In this document: one piece after another, positions 64 through 44,344 of the stretch
How the letters are laid out: the number at the start of each line of letters is the position of its first letter
Numbering within the stretch: position 1 is the first letter of the stretch
Origin: Acidimicrobiales bacterium
GTDB taxonomy: Bacteria > Actinomycetota > Acidimicrobiia > Acidimicrobiales > Bin134
DNA length: 64,000 nt
Assembly (NCBI GenBank): GCA_965208785.1
Contig: OZ242356.1
Coordinates: 2,562,929-2,626,928, forward strand
Direction of reading: 5' to 3'
Made by a program: the position numbers and the translations under genes
Notes under the pieces: generated by a model
Seen by the model: only the letters and a program-made list of their open reading frames with translations
Told to the model about the DNA's origin: nothing
Databases searched by the model: none

Positions 64-843
64 TTAGGATCCCTTGCCCAGGCCGCGGCGCTGCATGTCT
101 TCGGTGTCTACCGTCCATCTGCGCATGGCTTCTTCTTCGACCTCTTTGGCCTCAGTGAAGCTCATTCCGTCGGTGTCGTCGTAGATCCGCATGGTGGCCG
201 CGGTGGCCGGAGTGGTGGCGGCCACCATCTGGGCCGCTAGATCCCGTGCGTGGGCTAGCAGCTCTCCGTGGGGGACCACGTGGTTGACCAGTCCGATGCG
301 CAGGGCTTCTTCGGCGTAGACGAAGCGGGCGGTGGCGGTCATCTCCTTGGCCATGCGCTTGCCCACCGCTCGGGGCAATAGCGCGGTCATGCCCCAGGCG
401 GCGATAACCCCGATCTTGGCGTGGGTGTCGGCGAATCGGGCTTGGTCGGAGGCCACGATGAAGTCGCAGCTCAGGGCGATCTCCAGGCCGCCGGTGACGC
501 AGGTTCCGTTCACCGCGCAGATCAATGGCTTGGCGGTGTCCCTACAGGACTGAGCCGGGTCCTCAGCCTGGCGCTTGTCCCCGCCGGGGGTTTCCGAGAC
601 CCCGTCGGCGGCCACCTCACGCAGGTCCACGCCGCCAGTGAACACCGGGTCGGCCCCGGTCAAGATGATGGCCTCGACCCCGTCGTCAGCGTCGCAGCCC
701 CGCAACGCGGCGCACAAGTCGTTGCGCATCCGCTTGGTCATGGCATTGCGGGCCTCGGGGCGGTTCAAAGTGATGGTGGCGATGCGGTCGCTGACCTCGA
801 CGAGCAGGTGCTGGTCTTCGAGGGTGATGGCTTTGTCGGTCAT
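64..843 (-). CDS. enoyl-CoA hydratase/isomerase (crotonase) family protein
   Basis: ORF 64..963 trimmed to the ATG at 843 (MTDKAITLED...). Crotonase-type segments ITLNRPEARNAM, ILTGADPVFTGGVDL and CAVNGTCVTGGLEIALSCDF. Lies 11 nt downstream of the aroC stop. Confidence 0.85.
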   Translation of the reverse strand: MTDKAITLEDQHLLVEVSDRIATITLNRPEARNAMTKRMRNDLCAALRGCDADDGVEAIILTGADPVFTGGVDLREVAADGVSETPGGDKRQAEDPAQSCRDTAKPLICAVNGTCVTGGLEIALSCDFIVASDQARFADTHAKIGVIAAWGMTALLPRAVGKRMAKEMTATARFVYAEEALRIGLVNHVVPHGELLAHARDLAAQMVAATTPATAATMRIYDDTDGMSFTEAKEVEEEAMRRWTVDTEDMQRRGLGKGS

Positions 844-854
844 GTGTTCGACAG

Positions 855-1952
855 TCAGCCTTCGCAGTCGATCACGCCCACCGCCTGCTGGCGCAGCCAG
901 TGATCGGCCAGCACCAGCAGCACCTGGGCCTCCACCATGGGCACTGCCCGAGGCAGCACGCACGGATCGTGGCGGCCCCTGGCCGCCAGCGTGACCGGGT
1001 TGTTATCCCGGTCCACGGTCTCCTGGGCCGAGGCGATGGTGGCGGTGGGCTTGAACCCCACTCGGATCACTATGTCCTCGCCGTTGCTGATGCCGCCCTG
1101 CACGCCGCCGGATCGGTTGGTGGCGGTGCGGGGACGGCCGTCGGGACCAGGGGTGAACGGGTCGTTGTGCTCCCGGCCGGTCATGGTCACCCCGGCGAAG
1201 CCCGAGCCGATCTCGAACCCCTTGGCCGCGGGCAGCGACAAGGCGGCCTTGGCCAAATCGGCATCCAACTTGTCGAACACCGGTTCGCCCAGGCCGGGGG
1301 GCACCTTTCGGGCCACGCATTCGACAATCCCGCCCAGGGAGTTGCCGTCGCGTCGAGCCGCCTCGATGGCCTCGGTCATGGCCTCCGCTTGCTCAGGAGA
1401 AGGACAGCGGGTGGCGTCGGCCTCCACATCGGCCAGAGTCACCGCCGCGAGGTCGACATCGGCAGTGATGGTGCCCACCTGGCGGACCCAGGCCAATACC
1501 TCGATGTCAGCCGCGGCCGCCAAGAGCTGGCGGGCGATGGCGCCGGCTGCCACTCGGCCGATGGTCTCCCGGGCGCTGGCCCGGCCTCCGCCCTGCCAGT
1601 TGCGGATGCCGTACTTGGCCTCGGTGGTGTAGTCGGCGTGGGAGGGGCGGTACATGTCCTTGAAGTCTTCGTAGGCGTTGGGCCGGGCATCGGTGTTGCC
1701 CACCAGCATGGCGATGGGCGACCCCAGTGTTCGGCCCTCGAACAACCCCGAGAGGATCGTCACTTTGTCGGCCTCGTCCCGCAAGGTGGTGAGCCGGCTC
1801 TGTCCTGGACGCCTCCGGTCCAGATCGTGCTGGACCATCTCCTCGTCCAGCGGAAGCCGGGGCGGGCAGCCGTCCACCACCGCGCCGATGCCGCCGCCGT
1901 GGGACTCCCCAAACGTCGTGACCCGGAACAACTGCCCCGTCGAACTGCTCAT
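855..1952 (-). CDS. aroC: chorismate synthase
   Basis: 365 aa. [24 protein letters not shown]-terminus, GGISNGE and GRHDPCV segments typical of AroC. Confidence 0.95.
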
Positions 1953-3348: not shown

Positions 3349-4866
3349 ATGCCGACCCTCTATGACGTTGTCCGGGATTTCAGTCGCACCTGGCCCGACA
3401 AGCTGGCCGTGCTCACCGAGCAGGACGGCCATCGCACCTACCAGGAGTTGGCCGCTCACGGTGGGGCGCTGGCTCACCAATTCCAAACCCGCTTCGGTCT
3501 GGGTTTGGGCGATCGGGCCTGCATCTGGATGCAAAACCGCCCCGAGTACATCGAGTGCCAGTTGGGAATGCAGGCCATCGGCCTAGCCGGTGTGCCAATA
3601 AACCCCGAGTGGACCGACCCGGAATTGGAGTTTGTGCTCAACCACTCCCGTTGTCGGCTGGTGTTCGCCGAGGCCGAGCGGGCCGAGCGGGCGGTGGCCC
3701 TGACCGCGGGAATGGACTCAATCGAGGCAGTGGTGAGCGTGGATGAGCCGGTGGACGGGGCCCTACTGCTGGCAGACCTCATCGGCGAATCGCCGGAGGG
3801 CGCTGGACTGGACCTGCCTCCGGTGGACGGGTTCGTGGAGGGCAACGTGCTCTACACATCGGGCACCACCACTGGGCGGCCCAAGGCGGTGCCGATGAGC
3901 CCCGAGCTGTTCGCCGGGGGAGCCGTGCCCTATGAGGAGATGTTCGGCCTGAGCCACACTGATCGGTCGCTGGTGGTGACCCCGCTGTTCCACGGCAACG
4001 CCATGGGCGGGGCCATGTCGGCGCTGAGCCGGGGGGCCAGCGTGGTCATGCCCCGCAAGTTCTCGGCGTCGCGCTTCTGGTCGCTGGTCGATCTGTACCG
4101 CCCCACCTACTTTCTCACCCTGGTGCCCATCATCAACATCTTGATGGCCCAGCCCCCCGGTCCCCACGAGAAGTCGCATTCGTTGCGGGTGATGATTCCG
4201 CTGGGCTGCGCGCCGATCATCGAGCAGATCGAGGAGCGCTACGGGGTGCCGTGCATGGACTGGTACGGCATGACCGAGGCGGGGTCGGGCACCTATACCC
4301 GGCTGGACGAGCCCCGCCGCCCCGGCTCAGTGGGCAAGCCGTTCGAGGGGTCGGTGCTGCGGATCTTCTTGCCTGATGGCTCAGAAGCGCCCACGGGGGA
4401 GACGGGGGAGATCTGCTTTCTGCGGTCCACCATCGGCTTCAACGGCTATATCGAAGACCCGGAGGCCACCGAGGCCGCCACCTCGGGCGACTGGTTCCGC
4501 ACCGGCGACCTGGGCTACGTGGACGACGACGGCTACCTCTACTTCGTGGACCGCCAGAAGGACATCGTGCGCCGGGGCGGAGAGAACCTCTCCACCATCG
4601 AGGTGGAAACCGCGCTGCGCACCCACCCCGCCGTGGGCGACATCGCCGTGGTGGCCCGCCCCGACCCGGTGCTGGGGGAGACGGTGGCCGCCTTCATCGT
4701 GGTGGCTGACGGCTGCGACCTCCCTACTGAGGACGACCTGCGGACCCACACCGAGGGAACCCTGGCCCCCTACAAGGTGCCCACCACCATTCAGCCCATC
4801 GACGAGCTCCCCCGCACCGGCAACGGCAAAGTAGAGAAGTTCCGCCTCCGCCATCAGTTCACCTGA
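3349..4866 (+). CDS. AMP-dependent acyl-CoA synthetase/ligase
   Basis: 505 aa. YTSGTTGRPKAV AMP-binding motif and WFRTGDLGYVDDDGYLYFVDRQKD. Confidence 0.9.
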   Translation: MPTLYDVVRDFSRTWPDKLAVLTEQDGHRTYQELAAHGGALAHQFQTRFGLGLGDRACIWMQNRPEYIECQLGMQAIGLAGVPINPEWTDPELEFVLNHSRCRLVFAEAERAERAVALTAGMDSIEAVVSVDEPVDGALLLADLIGESPEGAGLDLPPVDGFVEGNVLYTSGTTTGRPKAVPMSPELFAGGAVPYEEMFGLSHTDRSLVVTPLFHGNAMGGAMSALSRGASVVMPRKFSASRFWSLVDLYRPTYFLTLVPIINILMAQPPGPHEKSHSLRVMIPLGCAPIIEQIEERYGVPCMDWYGMTEAGSGTYTRLDEPRRPGSVGKPFEGSVLRIFLPDGSEAPTGETGEICFLRSTIGFNGYIEDPEATEAATSGDWFRTGDLGYVDDDGYLYFVDRQKDIVRRGGENLSTIEVETALRTHPAVGDIAVVARPDPVLGETVAAFIVVADGCDLPTEDDLRTHTEGTLAPYKVPTTIQPIDELPRTGNGKVEKFRLRHQFT

Positions 4867-6317
4867 TCCGCTGACCAGGGAAAACCGACAACATCTGCTA
4901 ATTTGACATCAACTAGTGGTGTTTCTTTGATGGCATTTGCGGTTTCGTTGGCTTGGGCTGCCTCTTGGGGCTCAATGAGGGCGAAGAGTCGATCTTGGAA
5001 ATCGTGGGCGGGGTGAAACTCGAACTTATTGCCTGCTTTGCTCTTGGTAAAGAGCCCTAGTTCCTCCAACCCGAGCAAGTCGGTGCGGGCTGATTGGTAC
5101 ACAACCCGATGGAGTTGTGCTTGACCTCCGATGGTGAATGTCTGGTACGGATCATTCAATGCGTCGCTGATGATGGAGAGTTGACGGTTGTTGAGTCCTA
5201 CAACGCTTTGCAGGAACTGCTTGGTCTTAGCGATCTCTGCTGTCTTCCGAGTCAGGTAGTCCCGGAGGCTGTCGATGGCCTGTTCGATAACCTCAAGCTG
5301 ATAGATGACGAAGTAGGTGGCGTCGTTGTTGTCGGTTTCGGCCTTCAAGTACGACTTCACATATTGCCCGGGCGCCTTTCTCAGAATCGCGGAGATGGAG
5401 ATGTACTGGGCCAGCCAGTAGCCCGACCGCAGCATGGACCAATAGAACAGCGCTCGAGCGGTGCGTCCGTTGCCGTCGACAAACGGATGGTCATAACCAA
5501 CCCAGAAGTGGACGAGAATCGCCCGTATCACAGGGTGGAGGAAGCCTTCTACGTTCTCACCGTTGGCGAAGGCGCATAGCTGTTCCAGCCGCTTTGGCAG
5601 TTCCTCGGCGGGCGGTGGCATGTGGAGCACCTTGTCGTCGAGGCCGACGACAAAGACTCGCTCTTCGTCTGGCTGTTGGAGGCGACCGGCATCCGAGTCG
5701 TTCTCCAGAGTGCCGTCGGTGACGACGCGGTGCAATTCCAACACATCGTCTGGTGTCAGCGGCCTGTGTTCGCGGGCCATTCGCTCGACTTCGAGCATCC
5801 CATTGAAGTTGTTGAAAACCATGCGCTCCCCATGGGTTCGAGGAGGTCGGCGGGTCTTCAGCATTTCTTTGGCGACTCGTCGGGTAGTCGCTGCGCCTTC
5901 CAACATGCTGGAAGTGATCGCCTCTTCGATAAGCGAGGAGACCAAGTAGCGATCGCTGGACTGCACGTTGGCAATCGCGTCATCTGTCTGAATCCGGCCA
6001 CCGGCGCACTTGTCGATGCTGTGGACTATTTCCTGAACGCGGTCGATATTGGAAAACCGGAATGGGTCTCCCTTCACGCTTTTCAGGGGCAGGAAGTGGG
6101 CGGAAGCAAACCTGCTGAGAGCAGTTCCCAGCCACCACTCGTCAAGGGTGAGTCCATCGGGCGGAGTCCGATGCCTCATTTCATCCCAGTGCAGGTACCT
6201 GCCCCTGGGATCGACCGGCTTCCCTGTGGAAAGCACCTCTAGGAGGCGTTGCGGACTCTCCTGGGAGTTCCTCGAGAACAGGTCGTTCCAATCCGGAGGT
6301 GGGAGCACCTTGGCCAC
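4854..6317 (-). CDS. Fic-family protein (class II, internal inhibitory helix; C-terminal wHTH-like tail)
   Basis: 487 aa with a GTG start. Fic core HPFVDGNGRTARAL. Upstream S-S-M-L-E-G fits the [ST]xxxE[GN] autoinhibition motif. Markedly A/T-richer than the flanks. Its 3' end overlaps the convergent ligase gene by 13 nt. Confidence 0.9.
   Translation of the reverse strand: MAKVLPPPDWNDLFSRNSQESPQRLLEVLSTGKPVDPRGRYLHWDEMRHRTPPDGLTLDEWWLGTALSRFASAHFLPLKSVKGDPFRFSNIDRVQEIVHSIDKCAGGRIQTDDAIANVQSSDRYLVSSLIEEAITSSMLEGAATTRRVAKEMLKTRRPPRTHGERMVFNNFNGMLEVERMAREHRPLTPDDVLELHRVVTDGTLENDSDAGRLQQPDEERVFVVGLDDKVLHMPPPAEELPKRLEQLCAFANGENVEGFLHPVIRAILVHFWVGYDHPFVDGNGRTARALFYWSMLRSGYWLAQYISISAILRKAPGQYVKSYLKAETDNNDATYFVIYQLEVIEQAIDSLRDYLTRKTAEIAKTKQFLQSVVGLNNRQLSIISDALNDPYQTFTIGGQAQLHRVVYQSARTDLLGLEELGLFTKSKAGNKFEFHPAHDFQDRLFALIEPQEAAQANETANAIKETPLVDVKLADVVGFPWSADQVN
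4867..4880. repeat. left copy of the imperfect direct repeat bracketing the Fic islet (TCCGCTGACCAGGG)
   Basis: Begins immediately after the stop codon of the ligase gene. Pairs with 6411..6426 (TCCGCTGGCCAAGGGG): 13 identical positions, one substitution and one 1-nt indel. Confidence 0.45.
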
Positions 6318-6525: not shown

Positions 6526-7689
6526 TCATTTGGGCGCAGCGAATTCGGCTCGGAGTTGGGGGCCGTGCTGGTTGAGGGCGGGGAGGGTGGGGGCGGTGTC
6601 GCCGGTGGGATTGTCCCAGTCGGCGGTGGTGGCGGGGGCGGGGAGGTCGACGGTGCCGTCGGGGTGGGTGACGGTGATCCGGTCGAGTTGGGGGTGAGCG
6701 GAGAGCCCGGCCACATCGTTGACTGCGCCGAAGGCCATGCGGCTCTTGGTGAGCTTGTCGCGGAGCGCGTCGGTGGGCAATAGGGCGAAAACCTCCCCGA
6801 CTGCTTCGTCTGTCTCCGCCCGGTTGGCGACTCGGGCCTTGTTGGTGGCGAAGCGGGGATGGTGGGCCAGCTCCGGCCGGTCGAGCACCTTCTCGCAAAG
6901 GGTGGCCCATTCCCGGTCGGACTGCACCGCGATGAGCAGGGTGGTGCCATCGGCGGTGGTGAAGCCGCCGTAGGGGGCGATGGACGGGTGGGCCAAACCC
7001 AATCGCTGGGGGCCATGCCCGAGGTAGTCGTGGTGCAGAAGAGGCACCGTCATCCATTCGGCCATGGTGGAGAACAGCGAGACCTCGATGCTGGCGCCCT
7101 CGCCAGTACGGGCCTGGCGGACCAGCGCCTGGCTGATGGCTCGGGCCGCGGCCTCGCCGGTGGCGATGTCGGCCACCGACACCCCGACTCGGCCCAGCGG
7201 CCCCGGTGCCCCGGACACTGAGACCAAGCCGCTTTCGGCCTGCACCAGGAGGTCGTATGCCTTCATGTCGGCATAGGGCCCGGTCGGCCCGTACCCCGAG
7301 ATATCGCAGGTGACCAGCCGGGGGTGCTGCTGGCGCAGAGCCTCAGAGCCGAATCCCAGCCGCTTTGCCGCACCCACGGCCAGGTTCTGGATGCAGACGT
7401 CGGCTTGGGCGACCATCCGACCCAGCATCGCTTGATCTTCATCGCCTTTGAGGTCGAGGACGATCGACTCCTTGCCCCGGTTCAACCAGGCGAAATAGCT
7501 GGCCAGCCCATCGGCGGCGGCGTCGTAGCCCCGGGAGAAGTCGCCCTCGGCCCGCTCTATCTTGATGACCCTGGCTCCGGCATCGGCCAACCGGCAGGAC
7601 GCCAATGGTCCCGCCACCGCTTGTTCGACAGAGACCACCAGCACGCCATCCAGAGGCTTTGCCGAGCTCACTCCAGCAACGTACCCCAC
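6526..7689 (-). CDS. CoA-transferase family III (CaiB/BaiF-type)
   Basis: 387 aa. The PLDGVLVVSVEQAVAGPLASCRLADAGARVIKIERAEGDFSRGYD N-terminus is typical of family III CoA-transferases. Confidence 0.9.
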   Translation of the reverse strand: MGYVAGVSSAKPLDGVLVVSVEQAVAGPLASCRLADAGARVIKIERAEGDFSRGYDAAADGLASYFAWLNRGKESIVLDLKGDEDQAMLGRMVAQADVCIQNLAVGAAKRLGFGSEALRQQHPRLVTCDISGYGPTGPYADMKAYDLLVQAESGLVSVSGAPGPLGRVGVSVADIATGEAAARAISQALVRQARTGEGASIEVSLFSTMAEWMTVPLLHHDYLGHGPQRLGLAHPSIAPYGGFTTADGTTLLIAVQSDREWATLCEKVLDRPELAHHPRFATNKARVANRAETDEAVGEVFALLPTDALRDKLTKSRMAFGAVNDVAGLSAHPQLDRITVTHPDGTVDLPAPATTADWDNPTGDTAPTLPALNQHGPQLRAEFAAPK

Positions 7690-7939: not shown

Positions 7940-9055
7940 TCAGTCGGGGCCTTCGGAGCTTGGCGCAATCGGCTTGGTGAGGCCGATCCGCTCGTAGGCC
8001 TCCGCGGGAATGGCCTCCAGGGACTTGTAGATCGTCCAGGTGCATTTTTTCGGCTCGGGACCAGACGTCTCCTCGGGATAGAGCGGAGAGTCGACCACTC
8101 TGATGGGATGACCCCACTGGCGGGCGGGCCACAGCTCCAAGGTGTAGCAGCAGTGGGCGCAGTAGTAGCAGACTCCCTTCTCGTTCCACGCCCAGTCATG
8201 TTCTTCGGAGGTGACTCCGAAGTTGTATGGCGGCGCCGAGCGGCTACCAGTTCCCTCGACGGGATCACCCCGCTGTCCCCGGTTCCCCGAGCCGCAGGGG
8301 TCGAATGAGATCACGTATTTGTCATCCTGTTCGGAGACCTCAATGTCGCCGGTTCGGTCAGGCCCGACGAGATGGGCCCGCATCCCCTCGAACGACAGAT
8401 AGAGGTTGCGGTAGAGGGTGTCCTCATAGGACTGGAGGCGCAGGTCGAAGGGTTGATAGCGCTCTTCGAGGTAGGGGGCAAGCACTTCGGAGTAGGCCTC
8501 ACCCACCGCGACCTCACCCAAGCGGTGGGCGACGAAGGTCAGCATACCCGATTGAAAGTCGGCGCCCCGGTCGTGGAGCTGACGCCATGCCTCTCGCAAC
8601 CGTTCCAAACGAATTAGTGCTTCTGACGCCTCGATCTCATAGGCCCGCAAGCCGTTGCCCAGCTCCCCGGCTTGCCGGGCCAGCTCTGCCCACCGGGGAT
8701 GGGAGTCAAACGGCTCATCGTCGGGAAAGGCCAGCAGTTCCCGCAAGCGAGCGGTTTCGCTGTCCAAGTCGTCTTCGCTGACACCCCGACTCGCCAGGAA
8801 CGAGCCCCAGCCCTCCCCCCACACCTGATAGATGACGTGGACCACTTTGGCCTCTTCCATCCAGTAATCCACGAGTTGGGCCGCGGTCTCCCAGTCTCCG
8901 GCATCGATGGCTTCGGTGATCTTGGCTGTGGTGGACACGGCTTGGTCGGTCCAGTCCCCGGTGCGGACCCGCTTGTTTATCTCCGTCGACCAGCTGAGGT
9001 GGGTCGGCGGGGCGGCAGATGTGCCAGAGATGCTTTTCTTGTGCTTCTGATCCAT
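7940..9055 (-). CDS. conserved cysteine-rich protein of unknown function (paralog A)
   Basis: ORF 7940..9514 trimmed to ATG 9055 (MDQKHKK...), with GGAG 8 nt upstream; the longer form would overlap the upstream SDR. 371 aa. Motifs GDWETAA, HLVGPDRTGD, FDPCGSG, GVCYYCAHC and KKCTW are shared with 30790..31908. Confidence 0.8.
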   Translation of the reverse strand: MDQKHKKSISGTSAAPPTHLSWSTEINKRVRTGDWTDQAVSTTAKITEAIDAGDWETAAQLVDYWMEEAKVVHVIYQVWGEGWGSFLASRGVSEDDLDSETARLRELLAFPDDEPFDSHPRWAELARQAGELGNGLRAYEIEASEALIRLERLREAWRQLHDRGADFQSGMLTFVAHRLGEVAVGEAYSEVLAPYLEERYQPFDLRLQSYEDTLYRNLYLSFEGMRAHLVGPDRTGDIEVSEQDDKYVISFDPCGSGNRGQRGDPVEGTGSRSAPPYNFGVTSEEHDWAWNEKGVCYYCAHCCYTLELWPARQWGHPIRVVDSPLYPEETSGPEPKKCTWTIYKSLEAIPAEAYERIGLTKPIAPSSEGPD

Positions 9056-9075
9056 CGGGGCTCCGGGAAGGCGAA

Positions 9076-9843
9076 TCAATACATCAGCATGGCACCGCTC
9101 ACGTTGATGGTGGCGCCGGAGATGAAAGAGGCGTGCCTGCTGGCCAGGAATACCACCGTGCCGGCCATTTCCTCGGGTTCGGCCACCCGACCCAGCGGGG
9201 TGGCATCGGTTAGTTGCTCGAACAGCTCGGGATCCAGGTCGGTGGTCAGCATCGGTGTGTTGATCTGGCCTGGCGACACGGCATTGACGGTGATCTGGTC
9301 GGGGCCGTAGGTGCGGGCCAGGCCGCGGACCATGGAGACGATGCCACCCTTGGATGCGCAGTAGACCACCGAGCCGCCGAACCCCCCTGTCCACCACCCC
9401 TGAGACGTGAATGCGATGATGCGACCGCCATCGCCTGCGTCGCGCATGGCGGAGGCTGCCGCCCGGCACAGAAAAAACGTGGCCTTCAGGTTGGTGTCCA
9501 CCTGGAAATCCCAATCCTGCTCGGTTACCTCGTCCACCGATGCCCGTCGTTTGAGAACCGCGGCGAGATGGGCCAAAACGTACACCTCTCCCAGGTGTCG
9601 CCGAGCCCGGTCGATCAGATCGCGGTGACCGTCCAAGTCGGAGAGATCAGCACCGACGCCGACATGGCCGGTCCCCTCCAGACCGGCGGCCACCTCCTCC
9701 GCGGCCTGCTGGCGGAGATCGACGGCCATGACCTTGGCGCCGGTGGAGGCAAATGCCTCGGCCACTGGCCGTCCCATGCCTCCCGCGGCGCCGGTCACGA
9801 TCACCCCCCGGCCCTCCAGTCCTGCTCCGACGCTCCATGTCAT
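9076..9843 (-). CDS. short-chain dehydrogenase/reductase (SDR)
   Basis: 255 aa. GVIVTGAAGGMGRPVA Rossmann motif and YCASKGG catalytic region. Confidence 0.9.
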   Translation of the reverse strand: MTWSVGAGLEGRGVIVTGAAGGMGRPVAEAFASTGAKVMAVDLRQQAAEEVAAGLEGTGHVGVGADLSDLDGHRDLIDRARRHLGEVYVLAHLAAVLKRRASVDEVTEQDWDFQVDTNLKATFFLCRAAASAMRDAGDGGRIIAFTSQGWWTGGFGGSVVYCASKGGIVSMVRGLARTYGPDQITVNAVSPGQINTPMLTTDLDPELFEQLTDATPLGRVAEPEEMAGTVVFLASRHASFISGATINVSGAMLMY

Positions 9844-9889: not shown

Positions 9890-11026
9890 TCAGCCCAGAA
9901 CCTTCTCGCTTCGGTACCGGTCTATCACCCGCTCGTCCACGTCGATGCCCAGTCCCGAGCCCGTGGGCGGGTAGACCCATCCATCGATGTGGACCAGGGG
10001 ATCAGGCACTAGCTCGTGTTGCATGGGGTTCTCCAGCGGCTTCAGCTCGAATAGGGTGCATGCCGAGCTGGAGAAGCTCACCGCCAGGCTGGCGGCCGAA
10101 ACGATGGCCGACGACCAGGCATGGGCGTTGGCCCGACGCCGGTGCAGCTCCACCAGATCGGTCACCCGCTTGAAGCCGGTGATCCCCTCGGCTCGACCGG
10201 GGTCGCACCCGACCACGTCTACCGTGCCGGTAGCCAGCACACGCTCGTACCCCTCTATGGTCCATTCCTTTTCGCCGTAGGCCATGGCGGCGACGGATTG
10301 GCTTCGCAATTCGGCGTAGCCCTGTGGATCCCAAGCGCCCAAAGGCTCCTCGATCCAGGCGATCCCATACTCGTCGAATGCCTGAGTTCGGCTCACCGCG
10401 GTGGGCACGTCCCATTTGATCACCCAGCCCAAATCGATCATGAGGTGTTTGGTCGGCCCAATGGCCTCCCGCATGGCTTTGACATAAGCCACATCGCGAT
10501 CATGCTCGAAGCCGAGGTGGGCGTTGCCTCGCTTGCCGAATCCGACCTTCATTCCCTGCAAGCCGGTGGACAGCCATTCGGAGGCCTCAACCGCCATGTC
10601 GGGAATGGACTCGTAGTGGGCGTGGGACGATGCGATGGCCGGCAAGCGTTCATGCACCGGGCCGCCCAACAGGTCCAGGACGCTGCACCCCAGCGCTTTG
10701 CCTTTCAAATCCCACAGCGCGATGTCGATGGCCGAGATGGCGAACGACGCGATGCCCCCGCCGTACCCGTACCACCACGCTCGGTCCTTGAGCGACCGGT
10801 AGATGGCGTCCAGGTGAAGCGGGCTCTGGCCGATCACCAGATCGGACATGCCCTCAATGACGGCTTTGGCGGCAAAGCTCGACTCCGGCCACATGGTGAC
10901 CGACTCGCCCCAGCCCACGGTGCCGTCGTCGGCTGTGATCTTGGCCAAGCACAGGTGGCGGATGGCGTCGAAATCGTTGGGCTCGGGGTAGCTGACCGGG
11001 ATGGCTTCGACGGAGGCTATTTTCAT
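9890..11026 (-). CDS. enolase-superfamily enzyme (mandelate racemase/muconate lactonizing family, acid-sugar dehydratase-like)
   Basis: 378 aa. MKIASVEAIPVSYPE...DGTVGWGES capping domain, followed by a barrel domain with MIDLGW / IEEP / GEKEW type segments. Confidence 0.9.
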   Translation of the reverse strand: MKIASVEAIPVSYPEPNDFDAIRHLCLAKITADDGTVGWGESVTMWPESSFAAKAVIEGMSDLVIGQSPLHLDAIYRSLKDRAWWYGYGGGIASFAISAIDIALWDLKGKALGCSVLDLLGGPVHERLPAIASSHAHYESIPDMAVEASEWLSTGLQGMKVGFGKRGNAHLGFEHDRDVAYVKAMREAIGPTKHLMIDLGWVIKWDVPTAVSRTQAFDEYGIAWIEEPLGAWDPQGYAELRSQSVAAMAYGEKEWTIEGYERVLATGTVDVVGCDPGRAEGITGFKRVTDLVELHRRRANAHAWSSAIVSAASLAVSFSSSACTLFELKPLENPMQHELVPDPLVHIDGWVYPPTGSGLGIDVDERVIDRYRSEKVLG

Positions 11027-11088
11027 GGCGTCTCGGGTTTCATGGCGTCTCGGGTTTCATGGCGTCTCGGGTTTCATGGCGTCTCGGG
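11021..11088. repeat. 4 x 17-bp perfect tandem repeat (coding-strand unit CCCGAGACGCCATGAAA) of a stop/start ATGA gene junction
   Basis: Copies at 11021-11037, 11038-11054, 11055-11071 and 11072-11088. The first copy on the minus strand supplies the VOC gene stop. The last copy supplies the enolase-family ATG. Confidence 0.95.
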
Positions 11089-11562
11089 CGGTGGTTGGAA
11101 CAGTTCGATGGTGATGCCGTCCAAGTCTCGAAGGTACCCGGCTTTGGCCCCCCGGTTGGGGCCGGTGGTGACCAGATTCGGCTCGGGGCTCATGGGTGTT
11201 GCCCCTGCGGCCACCGCGCGCTGCCACAGTGTGTCGATGTCGTCAACCCGCAAGCACAGGTGGACGTTGCCCGGGTTGGCGGTGCCCATGTCATTGGGGG
11301 CTTTGTCCTCGGTTTGGTAGTCGAGCAGTTCGAGGATCGCCCCTCCGGGCAACTCCACAATGCTGGCGTCAAGCTTCACCCCCGGATAACCGGTAACACC
11401 GGCCAGGTAGTCTCCGTCGAGCACCCGCCGCCATCGAGGCTCCGCACCCAGGAACTCCTTCCAGAAGGCCAGCGTCCTGTCGACGCTGGCCACGGTCATA
11501 CCGATGTGGTGTACGGCAACCGCGGTAGCCGGCGGGTGGTTTGTCGTCTGCGTGCTCACCAT
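11074..11562 (-). CDS. VOC (glyoxalase/bleomycin-resistance/dioxygenase) family protein
   Basis: 162 aa. VHHIGMTVASVDRTLAFWKEFLG ... HLCLRVDDID ... ELFQ pattern of VOC beta-alpha-beta-beta-beta modules. Confidence 0.8.
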   Translation of the reverse strand: MVSTQTTNHPPATAVAVHHIGMTVASVDRTLAFWKEFLGAEPRWRRVLDGDYLAGVTGYPGVKLDASIVELPGGAILELLDYQTEDKAPNDMGTANPGNVHLCLRVDDIDTLWQRAVAAGATPMSPEPNLVTTGPNRGAKAGYLRDLDGITIELFQPPPETP

Positions 11563-12302
11563 GTGACTAGTCCTCCGTCGAAGTTGATGGCCTGTCCGGT
11601 CATGTATCCGGCACCGTCAGAGAGCAAAAACCAGATCAGCTCGGCAATCTCATCCGGTGTGGCGCCGCGGCCGAGGGGCACCGATTCCTGCCGCTGATCG
11701 GAGAGCTGCTGGGGGCTGATCCCCCGCAGAGCCGATACCTGGTCAAGCACGGCGTCTTGCATGGGCGTGTCGATGATTCCTGGACAGATGGCGTTGACCC
11801 GTACCGGGATCGACGACAGGGCGTAGGCGAATGACCGGGTGATGGACAGCACGCCCGCCTTGGTAGCGGCGTAAGAGGCAGCCTCGGTTGTGTTGGACAA
11901 CTTGGCCGACGAGGACGAGATGTTCACGATCGCGCCCCCCGGCGGCATGGTGGGGCCGATGCCCTGGCAGCAGAAGAACACCGCCTCAGCATTGACCTGA
12001 AAGAGCTCACGCCAGTCTTCGACCGTGATGTCTGCTATGTCCTTCAGGCGGATGATCCCTGCGGCCTGCACGAGCCAGTCGACCCCTCGAGCCGCTTCGA
12101 TCACCTTGGATCGATCATCCGGGTCGCCCAAGTCGGCGACGAGGGGGGCGGCCCCTTGCTCTGCGAGCGCGTCGAGGCCCTGGGGGTTGACGTCGGCGGC
12201 GATCACGTCGGCGCCCGACTTGAGCAGGAACCGAGCGGCGCCTGCGCCGATCCCGCTGGCTGCCCCGGTTACCAGTGCTCGCCGCGTTCTCGGGCTGCTC
12301 AT
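11556..12302 (-). CDS. short-chain dehydrogenase/reductase (SDR)
   Basis: ORF 11556..12752 trimmed to ATG 12302 (MSSPRTRRALVTGAASGIGAGAA). YAATKAG catalytic region. Its 3' end overlaps the VOC start by 7 nt. Confidence 0.85.
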   Translation of the reverse strand: MSSPRTRRALVTGAASGIGAGAARFLLKSGADVIAADVNPQGLDALAEQGAAPLVADLGDPDDRSKVIEAARGVDWLVQAAGIIRLKDIADITVEDWRELFQVNAEAVFFCCQGIGPTMPPGGAIVNISSSSAKLSNTTEAASYAATKAGVLSITRSFAYALSSIPVRVNAICPGIIDTPMQDAVLDQVSALRGISPQQLSDQRQESVPLGRGATPDEIAELIWFLLSDGAGYMTGQAINFDGGLVTW

Positions 12303-12347: not shown

Positions 12348-12361
12348 TGGAAACGATTCTA
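12348..12361. promoter_or_regulatory. LacI-type operator candidate O1 (TGGAAACGATTCTA)
   Basis: 46-59 nt upstream of the SDR-VOC-dehydratase-SDR-Cys-rich operon. Member of the 7-site motif family. Confidence 0.6.
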
Positions 12362-12485: not shown

Positions 12486-12499
12486 TAGAAACGTTTCCA
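12486..12499. promoter_or_regulatory. LacI-type operator candidate O2 (TAGAAACGTTTCCA)
   Basis: 33-46 nt upstream of the SBP start. The core GAAACGTTTC is a perfect palindrome. Confidence 0.65.
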
Positions 12500-14701: not shown

Positions 14702-16246
14702 ATGGAAGGACAACCCGACTCTGGGCCACTGCGAGTGGCCGGGCGCGCCCTGCGCAAGAGCTTCGGGGGAATAGAGGTTCTGCACGGAGTGGATTTGGAG
14801 GCGGTGGGGGGCAGGGTTCTCGCCCTTCTGGGAGAGAACGGCGCAGGGAAGTCCACTGCGGTGAAGATCCTGGCGGGCGACTACCGCAGGGACAGCGGCG
14901 AGATTCTGGTGAACGATCAGCCGGTGGTCATTCGCTCGCCGCGCGATGCCTCCGATTTGGGCATCCGGGTGATCTACCAGGAGTTCTCCGATGCCCCCGA
15001 CCTGACTGTGTCCGAAAACCTCTCACTCGGCAATCTGCCTCGCAATCGCCTGGGCCTGGTGGACTGGGCCGCGATGCGGAGTGACGCCGAGGCCATCCTC
15101 GATGAGCTGGGCATCAATCTGGACCCCAAAGCAATCGTCGGGTCGCTGAGGGTGGCCGAGCGCCAAATCCTGGAGATCGCCCGAGCGCTGGCCGGCGACG
15201 CCCGAATGCTCATTCTCGACGAGCCCACCTCCGCTTTGACCATAGAGGAGACGCAGACCCTGTTCTCGTTCATCCGGCAATTGAAGGCCCAGGGAGCAGC
15301 CGTCATCTACATCACCCACCGCTTGGACGAAGTGGAGGAAATCGCCGACGACGTCTTGGTCTTCCGCGACGGTTATGTGGTCGCCGAGGGCCCTCGCTCG
15401 TCATTCACCCGCCACGACATGGCGGAAGCCATGGTGGGGGCGAAGCTGGACGAGACGGTGGCCAATCTTCATGCCGATCATGCCGAGCCCGGCCAGCCCA
15501 TGCTGGAACTGAGCGGCGTCACCATCGAGCCCTTCTTCGAGAATGTGGATCTGACGGTGAGGAGCGGTGAAATCGTCTCGCTGTTCGGCCGGTTGGGATG
15601 CGGCTCCATGGAGTTGGCCGAGTCGGTCTTCGGGCTGAAGCGGCTTGATTCGGGAGAGATGACCGTGGCCGGGGTCGAAGGCCAGGTGCGGTCGCCGACG
15701 GCTGCCGCCCGGCGAGGCGTGGGATTTGTGCCGGTGGACCGGAAGGAGGAGGGCCTGCTGACCGTTCTCTCCGTGGCGGAGAACCTCAGCGTTGCCTCGT
15801 GGTCGCTCCTCACCCGAATGGGCTTGCTGTCACCCAAAGCATCACTGAAGGTGTACGAGCGGTGGCAGGACAGGCTCGCCATCCGAGGCACTCGGGGCGC
15901 CCGCCAGGTGGTGTCGACGCTGTCGGGAGGCAACCAGCAGAAGGTGGTTCTGGGCCGCTGGCTGGAGCGGGATTCGAAGCTCTTGGTGATGGCTGAGCCC
16001 ACCAGGGGAGTGGATGTGGGCGCTCGGGCCGAAATCTACCGGGTGCTGCGGGGATTCGCCGACGAGGGACTGGCCATCCTGGTTGTGTCGTCGGACATCG
16101 AAGAAGTGCTGCGAATTTCCGACCGCATCATCGTCATGTCCAGGGGCGTGGTCGTGGCTGAGCATCCGGCGGGAGGAGTGGATCGGGCTCGGCTGGTGCG
16201 AGAGGCTGCCGCCAGCCACCACGAAGCCGCCGCGACGGGGGGATGA
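14702..16246 (+). CDS. ABC sugar transporter ATP-binding protein (duplicated ATPase, RbsA/MglA-like)
   Basis: 514 aa. Walker A GENGAGKST, signature LSGGNQQKVVLGRWL, two nucleotide-binding domains. Confidence 0.9.
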   Translation: MEGQPDSGPLRVAGRALRKSFGGIEVLHGVDLEAVGGRVLALLGENGAGKSTAVKILAGDYRRDSGEILVNDQPVVIRSPRDASDLGIRVIYQEFSDAPDLTVSENLSLGNLPRNRLGLVDWAAMRSDAEAILDELGINLDPKAIVGSLRVAERQILEIARALAGDARMLILDEPTSALTIEETQTLFSFIRQLKAQGAAVIYITHRLDEVEEIADDVLVFRDGYVVAEGPRSSFTRHDMAEAMVGAKLDETVANLHADHAEPGQPMLELSGVTIEPFFENVDLTVRSGEIVSLFGRLGCGSMELAESVFGLKRLDSGEMTVAGVEGQVRSPTAAARRGVGFVPVDRKEEGLLTVLSVAENLSVASWSLLTRMGLLSPKASLKVYERWQDRLAIRGTRGARQVVSTLSGGNQQKVVLGRWLERDSKLLVMAEPTRGVDVGARAEIYRVLRGFADEGLAILVVSSDIEEVLRISDRIIVMSRGVVVAEHPAGGVDRARLVREAAASHHEAAATGG

Positions 16247-17718
16247 CGGGACCAGGCCGGGTTGCGGTTGGCCAATTTCTGCTGGAGGCCAACACCTTTA
16301 CGCCACTGCGGTCAGAGCTTGACATCTTCGCGGCCGCCGGCCTTCTGGAGGGGCCTGGACTCGTTCGGGAAGGTTTGCCCGACGATGAGTTGGCGGCGGC
16401 TTGGGATGGTCTGGTCGCCCGCGGGTTTACGCCGGTTCCCACGGTGCGAGCATGGGCCGGGGCCGGTCCTCCCCTGACCGCCGCGGCCTTTGAGCAGATC
16501 ATGTCGGCCATCGTCGAGCCGATGGAGCCGACGCTGGCCGGCGTGCTGCTCTCTCTGCACGGCGCATCGGCAGCCGAGGGGGTGGACGATCCAGAGGGCG
16601 TGATCTTGGAGGAAGTCCGTCGTCGAATCGGAGGCGGTGTGCCGATGGCCGTGACGCTGGACTGCCACGCCGGCCTCACTGCTCGAATGCTCGAGAACGT
16701 CGACATCATCACCGGCTATCGCACCGTCCCCCATGTGGACCTGGCGCGAACCGGCGCCCAGGCAGCCCAACTGCTGTGTGATGCCATCGACGGTCTCATA
16801 CGCCCGGTGGTAAGGCATGCGGCCATTCCCATGCTTGCTCCGGCTGACCGCCAGAACAACGACCTTGAGCCCTTCCGGTCTCTCATGGGGGGTTGCACCG
16901 TCGCCGAGCAGCACCCCGGTGTGCTGGCCACTGCCTTTTTCCCCTCCCATCCTTGGCGTGACGTGCCCGAATTGGGGTGGAGCACCTGTTGCACCACCGA
17001 TGGAGACCCCGAGTTGGCCGCTGAGACGGCGTCAAGTCTGGCGGTGGCGGTCTGGGCGGCCCGAGAGGAGATGATCGGCGGCCGCCGGCCTCCATTGGAC
17101 AAGGCATTGACTGAGGCGCTGGATGGCACCGCGCCGTTTGTGGTGGCCGATGCCGGAGACAGCCCCAGCGGAGGCTCGCCGGGGGATTCCACCGAACTGC
17201 TGCGAACAGCCGACCGGATGAAGGACCGGGCCATTTGGCTTACCGTGCGGGATCCTGAGGCTGCTGAAGCAGCCGCGGCTGCCGGTGTGGGCGCGACTGT
17301 CAATGTGAGCCTGGGCCGCGGGGGAGCAGGAGAGTACAACCAGACCACCCGGCTGGAAGCCGAGGTGCTGGCCATTCCCGAAGGGAGCTTCGCCTATACC
17401 GGGTCGCTGGCCATGGGCAAGACCGGTGATCTCGGGGTTGCTGTGTTGTTGGCTGCGGGGAAGATGCGGGTGGTTGTCCACAGCCAGACAGTCATGGTGA
17501 TCGATCCCGCCCCCTATGTGGCTGCTGGATTGGACCCGGCCCAAGCGGAGGTCTTGCAAGCCAAGTCGCACGTTAGCTATCGAGAGGGCTTCGCCCCGAT
17601 CACCACCAGAAGCGTGGTTGCCAACACGGGCGGGCCCACTGCGGCCGATTTGGGGTTGCTGGAGTATCGGCGAAGGCCTGTTCCCATGTTCCCGTTCGAA
17701 TCCGACGTCCGCTTCTGA
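16243..17718 (+). CDS. M81 / MlrC-like (microcystinase C family) metallopeptidase-like protein
   Basis: 491 aa. RVAVGQFLLEANTFTP N-terminus typical of the MlrC/DUF1485 family. ATGA overlap with the ATPase gene. Confidence 0.75.
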   Translation: MTGPGRVAVGQFLLEANTFTPLRSELDIFAAAGLLEGPGLVREGLPDDELAAAWDGLVARGFTPVPTVRAWAGAGPPLTAAAFEQIMSAIVEPMEPTLAGVLLSLHGASAAEGVDDPEGVILEEVRRRIGGGVPMAVTLDCHAGLTARMLENVDIITGYRTVPHVDLARTGAQAAQLLCDAIDGLIRPVVRHAAIPMLAPADRQNNDLEPFRSLMGGCTVAEQHPGVLATAFFPSHPWRDVPELGWSTCCTTDGDPELAAETASSLAVAVWAAREEMIGGRRPPLDKALTEALDGTAPFVVADAGDSPSGGSPGDSTELLRTADRMKDRAIWLTVRDPEAAEAAAAAGVGATVNVSLGRGGAGEYNQTTRLEAEVLAIPEGSFAYTGSLAMGKTGDLGVAVLLAAGKMRVVVHSQTVMVIDPAPYVAAGLDPAQAEVLQAKSHVSYREGFAPITTRSVVANTGGPTAADLGLLEYRRRPVPMFPFESDVRF

Positions 17719-20601: not shown

Positions 20602-20628
20602 CTCTTCGTCACTTGGTTCAAACAGTAC

Positions 20629-20642
20629 TGGTAACGTTTTCA
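20629..20642. promoter_or_regulatory. LacI-type operator candidate O4 (TGGTAACGTTTTCA)
   Basis: Divergent gap between the dehydratase-like gene (start 20601) and the LacI gene (start 20703). 10/14 palindromic. Confidence 0.55.
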
Positions 20643-20702
20643 GCAGACCAACCTGCCTATGATTTCTGGCTTGAGCGTCTGCCGCCGACAAGGAAGTGGC
20701 GC

Positions 20703-21740
20703 ATGAAACACGAGTACGTCACGATGAAGGGCGCCACCATGAAGGAGGTGGCGGCCCATGCCGGGGTGGCCTTGTCCTCAGTGTCGCGAGTGCTCAACAA
20801 CCACCCGGATGTCAGCGAGGCCATGCAGCGGCAAGTACACGATGCCATCGCCGCTGTCGGCTACGAGCCCAACCTCTTGGCCTCCAGTTTGCGGCGGGGA
20901 TCCACCGAGACAGTGGGCTTCATCGCCAGCGACATCTCCAACCCGCTCTTCGCCGAGATCGTCCTCGGGGCAGAGCGCAGACTGGACGAATCCGGGTATT
21001 CCATGGTTCTCACCAACTCTGAGGGCAATCCCGAGCGCGATGAGGCCATGATCCGCCTCTTGAGGCGCCGGCGCATCGACGGGCTCATCTTGTCGGTGGC
21101 CGACGAGGACAGGCCGGGGACGATAGCCGAATTGTCCAAGCTGGCTGAGCCGGTGGTGCTCATCGACCGCGAGGTCAGCGGCTTCCACACCGCTTCGGCG
21201 GTATTCACTGATCATTCCGGCGGTATGCGGGCAGCCAGCGAGCACCTGCTCAGCCTGGGACATCGTCGAATTGCATTGATCTCAGGAGCTCGCAGCTTGC
21301 GCCCGGTTCGTGAGCGGCTCAAGGGCTTCGAAGCGGCCTTTGCAACTCGGGGCCTTCAGGTTCCCGAAGACCTCCTTCGCTTCGGCAGCTTCTCAGCGCC
21401 GTTCGGCCAGCAGGCCACCGCCGAACTGCTGGCCCTGGATGATCCGCCCACCGCAATCATCTCTGGCGGCAATCTCTTGCTCACCGGGGTGCTGCGAGCC
21501 CTGCAAGCGGGCCAACGGTCGGTTGGCGGGGATATCTCGCTCATATCCTGCGACGACGTCCCACTGGCTGAGCTCCACACACCTCCCATTTCCGTCGTCG
21601 ACCGAGACGCGGTGCAGATGGGCGATGCCGCCGCTAGTTTGCTGCTCGATCTTCTGGCTGGCGGGGATCGTCCCCGCGTGGCCGAAGTGCCCACCCATCT
21701 GCTTCTACGGGGTTCTACGCAACCGCTGGCCGTCGATTGA
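20703..21740 (+). CDS. LacI-family transcriptional regulator
   Basis: ATG 20703 has AAGGAAG 6 nt upstream. HTH segment ATMKEVAAHAGVALSSVSRVLNN...YEPNLLASSLRRG followed by a periplasmic-binding-protein-like effector domain. Confidence 0.9.
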   Translation: MKHEYVTMKGATMKEVAAHAGVALSSVSRVLNNHPDVSEAMQRQVHDAIAAVGYEPNLLASSLRRGSTETVGFIASDISNPLFAEIVLGAERRLDESGYSMVLTNSEGNPERDEAMIRLLRRRRIDGLILSVADEDRPGTIAELSKLAEPVVLIDREVSGFHTASAVFTDHSGGMRAASEHLLSLGHRRIALISGARSLRPVRERLKGFEAAFATRGLQVPEDLLRFGSFSAPFGQQATAELLALDDPPTAIISGGNLLLTGVLRALQAGQRSVGGDISLISCDDVPLAELHTPPISVVDRDAVQMGDAAASLLLDLLAGGDRPRVAEVPTHLLLRGSTQPLAVD

Positions 21741-21754
21741 GGGACTGCTATTGC

Positions 21755-21994
21755 TCAGTCGGAGGCGATGATGGCGATAGGAGCGCCAATGCCCACCTCA
21801 TCGTCCACGGCGACAAGGTGCTCGGCGAGCGTTCCCGACACCGGCGAGGGAACGTCGGAGTCCACCTTGTCGGTCTCGACCCGCAGCAAATCGTCCCCAG
21901 CGGCCACGGTGTCTCCAACCTCAGCGAGCCACTCCAGAACCACCACTTCTTCGGTGGTGTCGCCGAGCTTGGGAAGCTTGATGGTGAAACGCAT
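21755..21994 (-). CDS. free-standing lipoyl-attachment domain protein (79 aa)
   Basis: MRFTIKLPKLGDTTEEVVVLEWL...LLRVETDKVDSDVPSPVSG contains the ETDKV lipoyl-lysine motif. No E2 catalytic domain follows. An alternative TTG start at 22009 overlaps the E1-alpha stop. Confidence 0.8.
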   Translation of the reverse strand: MRFTIKLPKLGDTTEEVVVLEWLAEVGDTVAAGDDLLRVETDKVDSDVPSPVSGTLAEHLVAVDDEVGIGAPIAIIASD

Positions 21995-22005
21995 GGTGGG
22001 CGGGG

Positions 22006-24011: not shown

Positions 24012-24087
24012 GGAATCCTCCTTGTTTCACAGTTCGCCGAAGAACCGGTGGCACGAGTAGCTGTCTACGCCGATTCGCACGCCGGCC

Positions 24088-27855: not shown

Positions 27856-27884
27856 GAGTGTTGGAAAGAGAGAGGCGGAAAGGG

Positions 27885-30754: not shown

Positions 30755-30757
30755 TGC

Positions 30758-30771
30758 TGGAAACGTTACCA
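30758..30771. promoter_or_regulatory. LacI-type operator candidate O7 (TGGAAACGTTACCA)
   Basis: Fills most of the 35-bp divergent gap between isomerase-like paralog 2 and Cys-rich paralog B. Confidence 0.6.
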
Positions 30772-30789
30772 AGGAGAAGGAAACGGCAG

Positions 30790-32941: not shown

Positions 32942-33049
32942 GTGTCCCCGCGGTTGGAGCGGGTCGAGTACGAGTTCTGGCCGATGGGCATGGGGTTCAC
33001 CGGCGGCGATCTGGCCCGGGCTTTCTATCTGGAGCAGTATCCGCTCTAG
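32942..33049 (+). CDS. possible 35-aa small ORF or gene remnant (VSPRLERVEYEFWPMGMGFTGGDLARAFYLEQYPL)
   Basis: GTG start. Third-codon positions are almost all G/C, like real genes here. Fills the 108-bp convergent gap, and its TAG overlaps the TAG of the opposing ligase gene. Confidence 0.3.
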   Translation: MSPRLERVEYEFWPMGMGFTGGDLARAFYLEQYPL

Positions 33050-34545: not shown

Positions 34546-34556
34546 GACTCACGATA

Positions 34557-42444: not shown

Positions 42445-42462
42445 CGCCTTGCCTCCTGCCTG

Positions 42463-44334: not shown

Positions 44335-44344
44335 ACCGAGCCGG

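Follow-up and report, generated by a model that had tools for sequence, protein, structure and literature searches.

A widespread, uncurated cysteine-rich protein family encoded at the end of a sugar-acid operon with LacI-type palindromes in an Acidimicrobiales bacterium

Non-phosphorylative catabolism of L-fucose and L-rhamnose includes a gene layout known as route 3 (PMC11199699), and the ecological spread of such routes has been documented (PMC10444878). The gene considered here, paralog A, lies in a 64,000-nt stretch of contig OZ242356.1 from an Acidimicrobiales bacterium; this stretch was analysed as a whole and is referred to as the window. Its position after an SDR dehydrogenase, in the company of an enolase-type dehydratase, a cog3618 lactonase and, in relatives, rhaM, is that of the FAH hydrolases FucG and LRA6 in the route 3 layout (PMC11199699). 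A second likeness is to the 2-keto-3-deoxy (KD) acid aldolases, both class II (HpcH/HpaI) and class I (DHDPS/NAL), with which a cleavage to pyruvate and an aldehyde would possibly be shared. Judged by position, these hydrolases and aldolases would be the closest functional analogues. The proteins themselves, however, are unlike. Paralog A has no match to PF01557 or to the FAH fold, and a Cys4/His site stands against the Glu/Glu/Asp metal triad of FAH; nor does the family show a match to PF03328 or PF00701, a Schiff-base lysine motif or a TIM barrel, the predicted fold being unrelated to that of the aldolases. Paralog A is a member of a large uncurated family, structurally unmatched, inside a known kind of operon.

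The original prediction, made from the sequence alone, had left the family unassigned. This held when HMM, BLAST and Foldseek searches were run, with no Pfam, NCBIfam or PDB match returned. Against Pfam-A, the best E-value for paralog A and its paralog B was 0.05 (14 bits, compared with a cut-off of 27 bits), while NCBIfam yielded only noise for both and assigned no family. Single scans of 49 diverse members against Pfam found no family at E ≤ 0.01. Searches of PDB sequences, with phmmer for paralog A and with a family profile, returned coiled-coil or designed-helix noise only. Long and fused family members were also searched for fusion partners ('Rosetta stone' analysis), and no informative domains were found except for a probable GFO read-through. 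The literature gave no description of the family and nothing relevant on Poriferisocius or pRHL3. No confident match to a characterised family emerged from any of these searches, and the cysteines that the original prediction emphasised are conserved among homologues, as set out below.

A search of 5.8 billion proteins recovered 508 relatives of paralog A. All named relatives among them are 'hypothetical protein' and none carries a precomputed Pfam domain; the closest named ones come from Candidatus Poriferisocius (80%) and Gaiellales. When 1.84 billion cluster representatives were searched exhaustively with a profile, 839 clusters (50% identity) were identified at E ≤ 1e-3, and 513 at E ≤ 1e-10. 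Two forms could be distinguished, a long form of ~330–390 aa and a short form of ~250 aa. The short form is without a helical insert, equivalent to residues ~55–142 of paralog A, and retains the N-terminal hairpin and the core. The family is widespread and clearly under selection.

The structure of paralog A was predicted with AlphaFold2 from a 12-sequence alignment. The full-length model had a predicted local distance difference test (pLDDT) score of 87.2 and a predicted template modelling (TM) score (pTM) of 0.86, and the core alone (residues 143–371) reached 93.3 and 0.88, respectively. The full model consists of an N-terminal β-hairpin, a bundle of long helices, and a small C-terminal α/β domain that carries the Cys site and is built from strands 239–251, helix 297–314, and strands 320–322 and 338–343. 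None of 350,542 PDB chains gave a significant Foldseek match; the best E-values were 0.13 for the full model and 0.72 for the core, with query-normalised TM ≤ 0.3. As modelled, the fold is without a relative among solved structures, the PDB being the scope of this statement.

Conservation was analysed for 313 members that span the C-terminal region, aligned with MAFFT. Near-invariant positions were C254 (98%), C299 (96%), C302 (96%), C338 (97%) and H301 (98%), and further conserved positions were Y298 (98%), E181 (97%), H228, R226 and R259 (96% each), and D162 (95%). The conserved ligand set is thus C-x44-CxHC-x35-C, with the CxHC (C299-A-H301-C302) starting helix 297–314 in the model. Five cysteines, C254, C296, C299, C302 and C338, are common to paralogs A and B, while C303 is additional in A and occurs in 52% of members. 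The original prediction had called five cysteines invariant. Four are conserved to this degree, but C296 is present in only 82% of members overall and in 56% of short forms, where Pro usually replaces it. As C296 would be the first Cys of the CxxCxxC triplet that had also been proposed, the triplet does not stand as a family feature. A ferredoxin-type CxxCxxC(x3)CP motif was not found either, there being no CP after the Cys set and no Fer4 Pfam match.

Variation at the site was informative. All five of the five members without both C299 and C302 have Gly257 replaced by Cys, forming C254-x-x-C257, whereas position 257 is Gly, Ala or Thr where the standard set is intact. Such ligand swapping, with C257 standing in for the lost C299 and C302, suggests a site that binds a metal or cluster and needs a certain number of ligands, and counts against a fixed redox CxxC dyad. 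The four near-invariant cysteines behave as one ligand set, which places them in the generic Cys4 metal-binding class (Zn or Fe-S), and from the alignment we infer that a single metal centre, of Zn or of Fe-S type, would be bound by them. The conserved polar residues from H161 to H228 (Table 1) are probably close together in space. The His, Asp, Glu and Arg residues, with several Arg among them, may well form a pocket for an anionic carbonyl substrate. Paralog A is predicted to be a cytoplasmic metalloprotein, and is probably a metal-dependent enzyme of a kind that has not been described.

The genomic setting is that of a sugar-acid operon. Paralog A had been placed as the fifth gene of an SDR-VOC-enolase-SDR operon, and this was confirmed: the five genes, in the order SDR-VOC-enolase-SDR-paralog A, share the minus strand, with a 7-nt overlap followed by gaps of 47, 46 and 20 nt, and LacI-type palindromes lie 5′ of the first. 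The coordinates originally given for paralog A were exact, though its strand needs correcting to minus; the plus strand over the same interval contains many stop codons. The start codon lies 20 nt past the stop of the upstream SDR, with a GGAG ribosome-binding site at 9064..9061, 5 nt ahead of the ATG. The best PDB and NCBIfam relatives of the enolase are galactonate-type dehydratases, all under curated cut-offs. A sugar ABC transporter operon runs divergently from the paralog A operon on the plus strand.

LacI-type palindromes were searched for as a 14-mer resembling TGGWAACGTTWCCA, with up to 3 mismatches allowed. The window contained 18 matches, compared with 2.0 ± 1.6 in shuffles. Intergenic palindromes lay at six places (12348–12361, 12486–12499, 18498–18511, 20629–20642, 25205–25218 and 30758–30771); among the sites away from the paralog operons, one separates an SDR gene from an Amidohydro_2 lactonase-like gene and another is at an enolase/LacI divergent pair. 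Operator control of the paralog A operon had been proposed, and the palindromes at 12348–12361 and 12486–12499, together with a layout conserved in related genomes, support this. The LacI-family regulator in the window presumably binds the palindromes, and the A and B operons appear to belong to one LacI regulon, to whose operators binding is inferred from sequence. Also within the presumed regulon are the sugar ABC transporter, a second enolase, a cog3618-type lactonase, and a GFO-E1β-E1α operon for a pyruvate dehydrogenase (PDH)-like, thiamine pyrophosphate (TPP)-dependent enzyme. For the lactonase, the sole NCBIfam match was L-fucono-1,5-lactonase, at 107 bits compared with a 400-bit cut-off; among all the neighbouring enzymes this match gave the best hint of a substrate. 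A LacI regulator, palindromes, an ABC transporter, a dehydrogenase, a lactonase and an enolase-type dehydratase were all found, which is the composition of a LacI-regulated oxidative sugar(-acid) operon, and this layout is kept in Poriferisocius and other genomes.

Table 1. Coordinates of paralogs A and B, their conserved segments, and associated genes and palindromes in the window.
Feature	Coordinates	Strand	Details
Paralog A (FAM_A)	7940..9055	minus	371 aa; ATG 9055..9053, TGA 7942..7940
Cys/His site segment of paralog A	8042..8296	minus	C254 8296..8294, C296 8170..8168, C299 8161..8159, H301 8155..8153, C302 8152..8150, C338 8044..8042
Conserved polar segment of paralog A	8372..8575	minus	H161, D162, D166, E181, E223, R226, H228 on three core helices; presumed active-site side
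SDR dehydrogenase directly upstream of paralog A	9076..9843	minus	Pfam adh_short_C2, E 8e-52
Enolase-superfamily acid-sugar dehydratase	9890..11026	minus	Pfam MR_MLE_N/C
VOC/glyoxalase-fold protein	11074..11562	minus	Pfam Glyoxalase
First SDR of paralog A operon	11556..12302	minus	ATG 12302..12300; Pfam
LacI-type palindrome TAGAATCGTTTCCA	12348..12361		46 nt upstream of the first ATG of the paralog A operon
Second LacI-type palindrome	12486..12499		33 nt upstream of the divergent sugar ABC operon
Family III CoA-transferase	6526..7689	minus	Pfam CoA_transf_3, E 1e-99; 250 nt downstream of paralog A
LacI-family regulator	20613..21740	plus	Pfam LacI + Peripla_BP; helix-turn-helix from near ORF residue 42; palindrome 20629-20642
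GFO/MocA dehydrogenase, E1-beta, E1-alpha (PDH-like TPP enzyme) operon	22006..25170	minus	Behind palindrome 25205-25218
LacI-type palindrome, perfect pattern match	30758..30771		TGGTAACGTTTCCA on minus strand; 19 nt upstream of paralog B
Paralog B (FAM_B)	30790..31908	plus	372 aa
Zn-dependent (MDR) alcohol dehydrogenase	31915..32937	plus	Pfam ADH_N/ADH_zinc_N; 6 nt after paralog B

Paralogs A and B had been described as colinear over their length, and BLASTP agreed, with 139/355 identities (39%), E 9e-94 and only 3 gap positions. Of the shared motifs that had been listed, GDWETAA, WRQxHDR, HLVGP[DE]RTGD, FDPCGSG, PPYN[FW], KGVCxYCAHC and KCxW were recovered; 'YP[VI]RV', by contrast, reads HPIRVV in A. 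The A and B clades keep all key residues and differ at fixed pocket positions (Y210W, N217L, Y219L, F279W, A289N, W290H, C303I and H316Y), a pattern more in keeping with two specificities than with an active protein and a dead one. A role for paralog B as a dead partner of A was considered and rejected, as B-clade proteins retain all key residues.

To place the family in other genomes, one genome per GTDB species was scanned. This gave 61 loci, of which 59 non-redundant ones were used for counts within 10 kb; neighbours were labelled by BLAST against the window proteins and by all-against-all clustering of ORFs. The loci came from Acidimicrobiia, Gaiellales, Solirubrobacterales and Chloroflexota, with 31%-identical genes in cultured Gordonia, and the Acidimicrobiia loci include the 95%-identical metagenome-assembled genome IRC1_bin_38 as well as several sponge-associated lineages. 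An SDR gene was present in 46/59 loci, and any SDR, MDR or GFO dehydrogenase in 49/59. Amidohydro_2 (cog3618-type lactonase) genes were found in 36 of the 59. The check for co-occurrence with enolase-superfamily genes, suggested in the original prediction, was positive in 32/59. GFO genes were present in 26/59, a component of an E1/E2/E3 complex in 25/59, and a Zn-dependent alcohol dehydrogenase (Zn-ADH) in 14/59.

Gene order was also recurrent. The gene directly upstream of A-type members is an SDR in 19 of ~50 loci, including Gordonia, and A-type genes are usually final in their operon. In at least six loci a Zn-ADH gene comes next after the B-type gene, and in many genomes A-type and B-type genes are adjacent or <2 kb apart, in the order B-ZnADH-A-isomerase-like. 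In one locus (L067) an enolase gene ends 8 nt ahead of the family gene. One Pfam-annotated operon reads SDR-family gene-HpcH-CoA-transferase-MaoC-lipoyl-E2-E1α-E1β, and three Pfam-annotated loci contain a rhaM mutarotase. FAH (PF01557) and DHDPS genes were absent from eleven Pfam-annotated metagenome-derived contexts, the FAH check covering ±10 kb. No DHDPS homologues were found in the 59 genome loci or in 80 metagenome loci, and HpcH was rare (3/59 genome loci). A lactonase or mutarotase role for the family itself was ruled out, since Amidohydro_2 and rhaM genes co-occur with it.

More remote subfamilies occupy different surroundings. Around the short form on plasmid pRHL3 of Rhodococcus jostii RHA1 (L073, NC_008271.1 20408..21175), the order is acyl-CoA dehydrogenase (ACAD)-E1α-E1β-E2-ZnADH-[insertion sequence, IS]-family gene-lpdA-SDR-AMP ligase; the family gene and lpdA have 8 nt in common, and an IS3 element lies just upstream. 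A metagenome-assembled genome (L075) has E1α-E1β-ACAD-CoA transferase-E2-E3-family gene. Among 36 short-form metagenome loci of at least 5 kb, 15 carried E1/E2/E3 genes, in several gene orders, and in 11 of these 15 the family gene came straight after E3 or E2. Short forms within E1-E2-E3 operons with ACAD, CoA-transferase and AMP-ligase genes were thus observed in L073, L075 and loci L121–L142. Such operons accord with the splitting of a product to give a 2-oxo acid plus an acid.

A third subfamily is found in cultured Gordonia, Rhodococcus pyridinivorans, Mycolicibacterium, Nocardioides and Pseudonocardia. Its order is GntR / SDR-DUF1116-SDR-family gene-GS-like-GS-like-esterase-SDR-BVMO (GS, glutamine synthetase), near glutaminase and gamma-glutamyl hydrolase genes. 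This conserved actinobacterial cluster was seen in L072 (R. pyridinivorans SB3094 plasmid NC_023144.1 233601..243517), L060 and L071; its DUF1116 protein is AllG-like, and an APC permease is encoded as well. The gene content resembles that of an uncharacterised amine/ketone pathway working by gamma-glutamylation. The E1-E2-E3/acyl-CoA and gamma-glutamyl/BVMO contexts together indicate that the family is not restricted to sugar acids. The constant context is an adjacent NAD(P)-dependent alcohol/ketone dehydrogenase, very often with a TPP-lipoyl complex and acyl-CoA enzymes.

We tentatively favour, as a possible function of paralog A, that of a metal-dependent enzyme acting on the keto product of the dehydrogenase and cleaving a C–C bond of a keto-deoxy or diketo acid. 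The original prediction had made paralog A a candidate in view of a missing terminal enzyme of deoxyhexose catabolism, and a candidate it stays. In the proposed reaction, which is the part held with the lowest confidence, the enolase would make a 2-keto-3-deoxy sugar acid, and oxidation of this by the adjacent SDR would give a 2,4-diketo-3-deoxy acid. A C–C bond would next be cleaved by paralog A, through β-diketone hydrolysis or a retro-aldol reaction. The pyruvate released would enter the co-regulated PDH-like E1/E2/E3 complex, and the second fragment would be taken up by the CoA-transferase, CoA-ligase and acyl-CoA dehydrogenase encoded nearby. On such a scheme paralog A would be a non-homologous functional replacement for FAH-type FucG/LRA6 hydrolases or for KD-acid aldolases, with paralogs A and B performing the same chemistry on different substrates. 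C–C cleavage would explain why no FAH or aldolase lies nearby, the adjacency to a dehydrogenase, and the operons combining E1-E2-E3 with ligase and ACAD genes.

Several points weigh against C–C cleavage. Four fully conserved cysteines would be no less expected of a structural or redox centre than of a catalytic one. The SDRs, Zn-ADH, GFO, enolases and lactonase give only generic matches under curated cut-offs, so that even the sugar substrate is not assignable. The supposedly missing step could instead be performed by the VOC protein, the E1 enzyme or the products of the xylose-isomerase-like TIM genes found in 14–17 loci. A-type genes are also found behind ABC permeases or LacI, or with no particular gene ahead of them. 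No sugar genes accompany the Gordonia/Rhodococcus/Nocardioides subfamily, whose setting is a gamma-glutamyl-amine/BVMO cluster, and the Nocardioides locus has a DHDPS gene ~6 kb away. Finally, the absence of FAH applies within its 10-kb limit, and the co-occurrence counts are raw, without a background rate, and come from phylogenetically non-independent loci.

Much of the same evidence would be accommodated by a keto-acid or alpha-ketol isomerase or tautomerase, in which a metal-bound enediolate moves the carbonyl made by the SDR, MDR or GFO enzyme to give a 2-oxo or acetoin-like substrate for E1. Isomerisation by a keto-isomerase such as OtnI, KduI or Hyi is the usual link from a sugar-acid dehydrogenase to the enzyme that follows it, which speaks for this assignment, as do the adjacency to dehydrogenases, the linkage to E1-E2-E3 and the conserved His/Asp/Glu pocket. 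The activity could, however, be supplied in many loci by a xylose-isomerase-like TIM gene and two L-arabinose/fucose-isomerase-like genes. We consider an isomerase unlikely, although computation offers no distinction between it and C–C cleavage. The linkage to E1-E2-E3 has also been weighed as a sign of a redox or accessory partner of the lipoyl/E3 system, whose CxHC or Fe-S centre would exchange electrons or thiols with dihydrolipoyl-E2 or E3. AhpD, which works with Lpd and DlaT, is a precedent for a lipoyl redox partner, and the CPHC of DsbA and the CGHC of PDI are CxHC-type sites at a helix N-terminus. The CxHC of paralog A likewise begins a helix, the family gene follows or overlaps lpdA/E3 or E2 in RHA1 pRHL3, L075 and the 11 metagenome loci, and E1/E2/E3 genes are near 25/59 genome loci; moreover, the window and Poriferisocius have a free-standing lipoyl protein without an adjacent E2 core. 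By Pfam and Foldseek, though, the family has neither the thioredoxin nor the AhpD/CMD fold, and the gain of C257 beside C254 on loss of C299 and C302 fits a ligand count among four cysteines and not a fixed dyad. Many loci have dehydrogenases but no E1/E2/E3 within 10 kb, and the number of conserved Arg, His and acidic residues points to a site for a small molecule. A redox partner would seem quite unlikely.

The conserved Cys cluster could also belong to an Fe-S-dependent hydro-lyase. This would be a new dehydratase, comparable to IlvD/Edd, aconitase or serine dehydratase, with hydroxy acids or hydroxyacyl compounds as substrates. Like IlvD/Edd and UxaA-type enzymes, the family is Cys-rich and associated with sugar-acid catabolism, and some Chloroflexota clusters (ABC-family gene-GFO) are without an enolase-type dehydratase among their recognised ORFs. 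Lewis-acid Fe-S dehydratases, however, normally have three Cys and leave one Fe free, whereas four Cys are equally conserved here. No similarity to Fe-S lyase families was found, and an enolase-type dehydratase is already present in 32/59 loci, directly upstream of the family gene in some, making this reading improbable. Least probable of all is a non-catalytic zinc protein, either a regulator or sensor, such as a distant PDK-, BCKDK- or histidine-kinase-like modulator of E1, or a dehydrogenase scaffold. With both models, PDK1/2/4, BCKDK and the histidine kinases DesK, CpxA and ZraS turn up repeatedly at the top of the Foldseek output and are the commonest structural neighbours; the helical bundle with an alpha/beta layout, an 'HD' within a long helix, a D-x-x-G-x-G following a strand and the linkage to E1/E2/E3 are further likenesses to GHKL kinases. 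These matches are nonetheless insignificant (E 0.7–5, probability ≤ 0.08, TM 0.1–0.27, rmsd 9–22 Å). D252 is kept in 34/49 members (~70%) and N217 is Leu in the whole B clade, so the N-box and G1 requirements of GHKL proteins fail; residues of the ATP-binding N, G1 and G2 boxes are unconserved in the family, and no HATPase_c or HisKA Pfam signal was seen in paralogs A and B or the 49 members.

Stated more broadly, the family may represent a new metalloenzyme fold, with a Cys4 Zn/Fe-S site and a His/Asp/Glu/Arg pocket, that links dehydrogenase-made keto intermediates to PDH/acetoin-type TPP-lipoyl complexes, although this composite picture is rather improbable. If true, non-phosphorylative catabolism of sugar acids would have a further, partly CoA-dependent ending that had gone unrecognised. 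The route would be common across Actinomycetota and Chloroflexota, sponge symbionts among them, and Rhodococcus, Mycolicibacterium and Gordonia would have turned it to other keto compounds. An enzyme of this kind would supply the cleavage step to the oxidative sugar-acid pathways of abundant but uncultured Actinomycetota and Chloroflexota (sponge symbionts, and Gaiellales and Solirubrobacterales of soils), in whose loci dehydrogenase, lactonase and dehydratase genes are present with no known cleavage enzyme nearby. It would also provide a new metal-binding fold without a solved relative, and would explain a conserved gene in PDH/acetoin-type E1-E2-E3 operons. Homologues in cultured hosts, namely Rhodococcus jostii RHA1 (pRHL3), R. 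pyridinivorans SB3094, Mycolicibacterium, Nocardioides and Gordonia, make the family directly testable. Were it only a structural zinc protein, it would still be a well-delimited new domain family worth a Pfam entry. The existence of many conserved hypothetical families tempers the significance of this one.

Downstream of paralog A, the CoA-transferase gene possibly forms a separate transcript from the paralog A operon; CoA-transferase genes recur beside family members in other loci. In the 250-nt spacer between them, two copies of GGGGCGGATTGCGA run in the same direction, and one inverted arm pairs (79%) with each of the two (the elements being at 7754–7767, 7773–7786 and 7802–7815). These repeats are possibly a terminator or regulatory hairpin, though a simple terminator scan found no terminator in the spacer. 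A gene for a Fic-domain protein (4854..6317, minus) lies downstream of the CoA-transferase. On the other side, the last gene of the sugar ABC transporter operon encodes an MlrC/M81-peptidase-like protein (DUF1485 + MlrC_C; 16243..17718, plus), an odd partner for a sugar system.

Around the regulon, a small ORF for a lipoyl carrier accompanies the E1α/E1β operon (21770..25170, minus) without an adjacent E2 catalytic domain, and dihydrolipoamide dehydrogenase (E3) is encoded 12 kb from the E1 operon (37035..38393, minus). Genes of CoA-ester metabolism are also densely packed around it (33046..36200, 36225..37034, 41335..45553 and 64..963), comprising three AMP-binding ligases, a TauD-family dioxygenase, three acyl-CoA dehydrogenases and an enoyl-CoA hydratase. 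Two further ORFs, of 365 aa (53275..54372, minus) and 305 aa (61657..62574, minus), had no Pfam match at E ≤ 1e-5 and may be spurious in high-GC DNA. Close to paralog B are two ~480-aa paralogs, 35% identical to each other (27858..29285, plus, and 29309..30772, minus), one with a weak Arabinose_Iso_C match and the other without a Pfam match. The divergent gene ahead of paralog B is a 487-aa ORF, the 35% paralog of the weak L-arabinose-isomerase-like protein. Such isomerase-like paralogs, themselves little characterised, adjoin family genes in 18/62 loci, often as B-ZnADH-A-isomerase-like. A neutral-ceramidase-N-terminal-like protein (26410..27828, minus) likewise recurs near family genes, in 10 loci.

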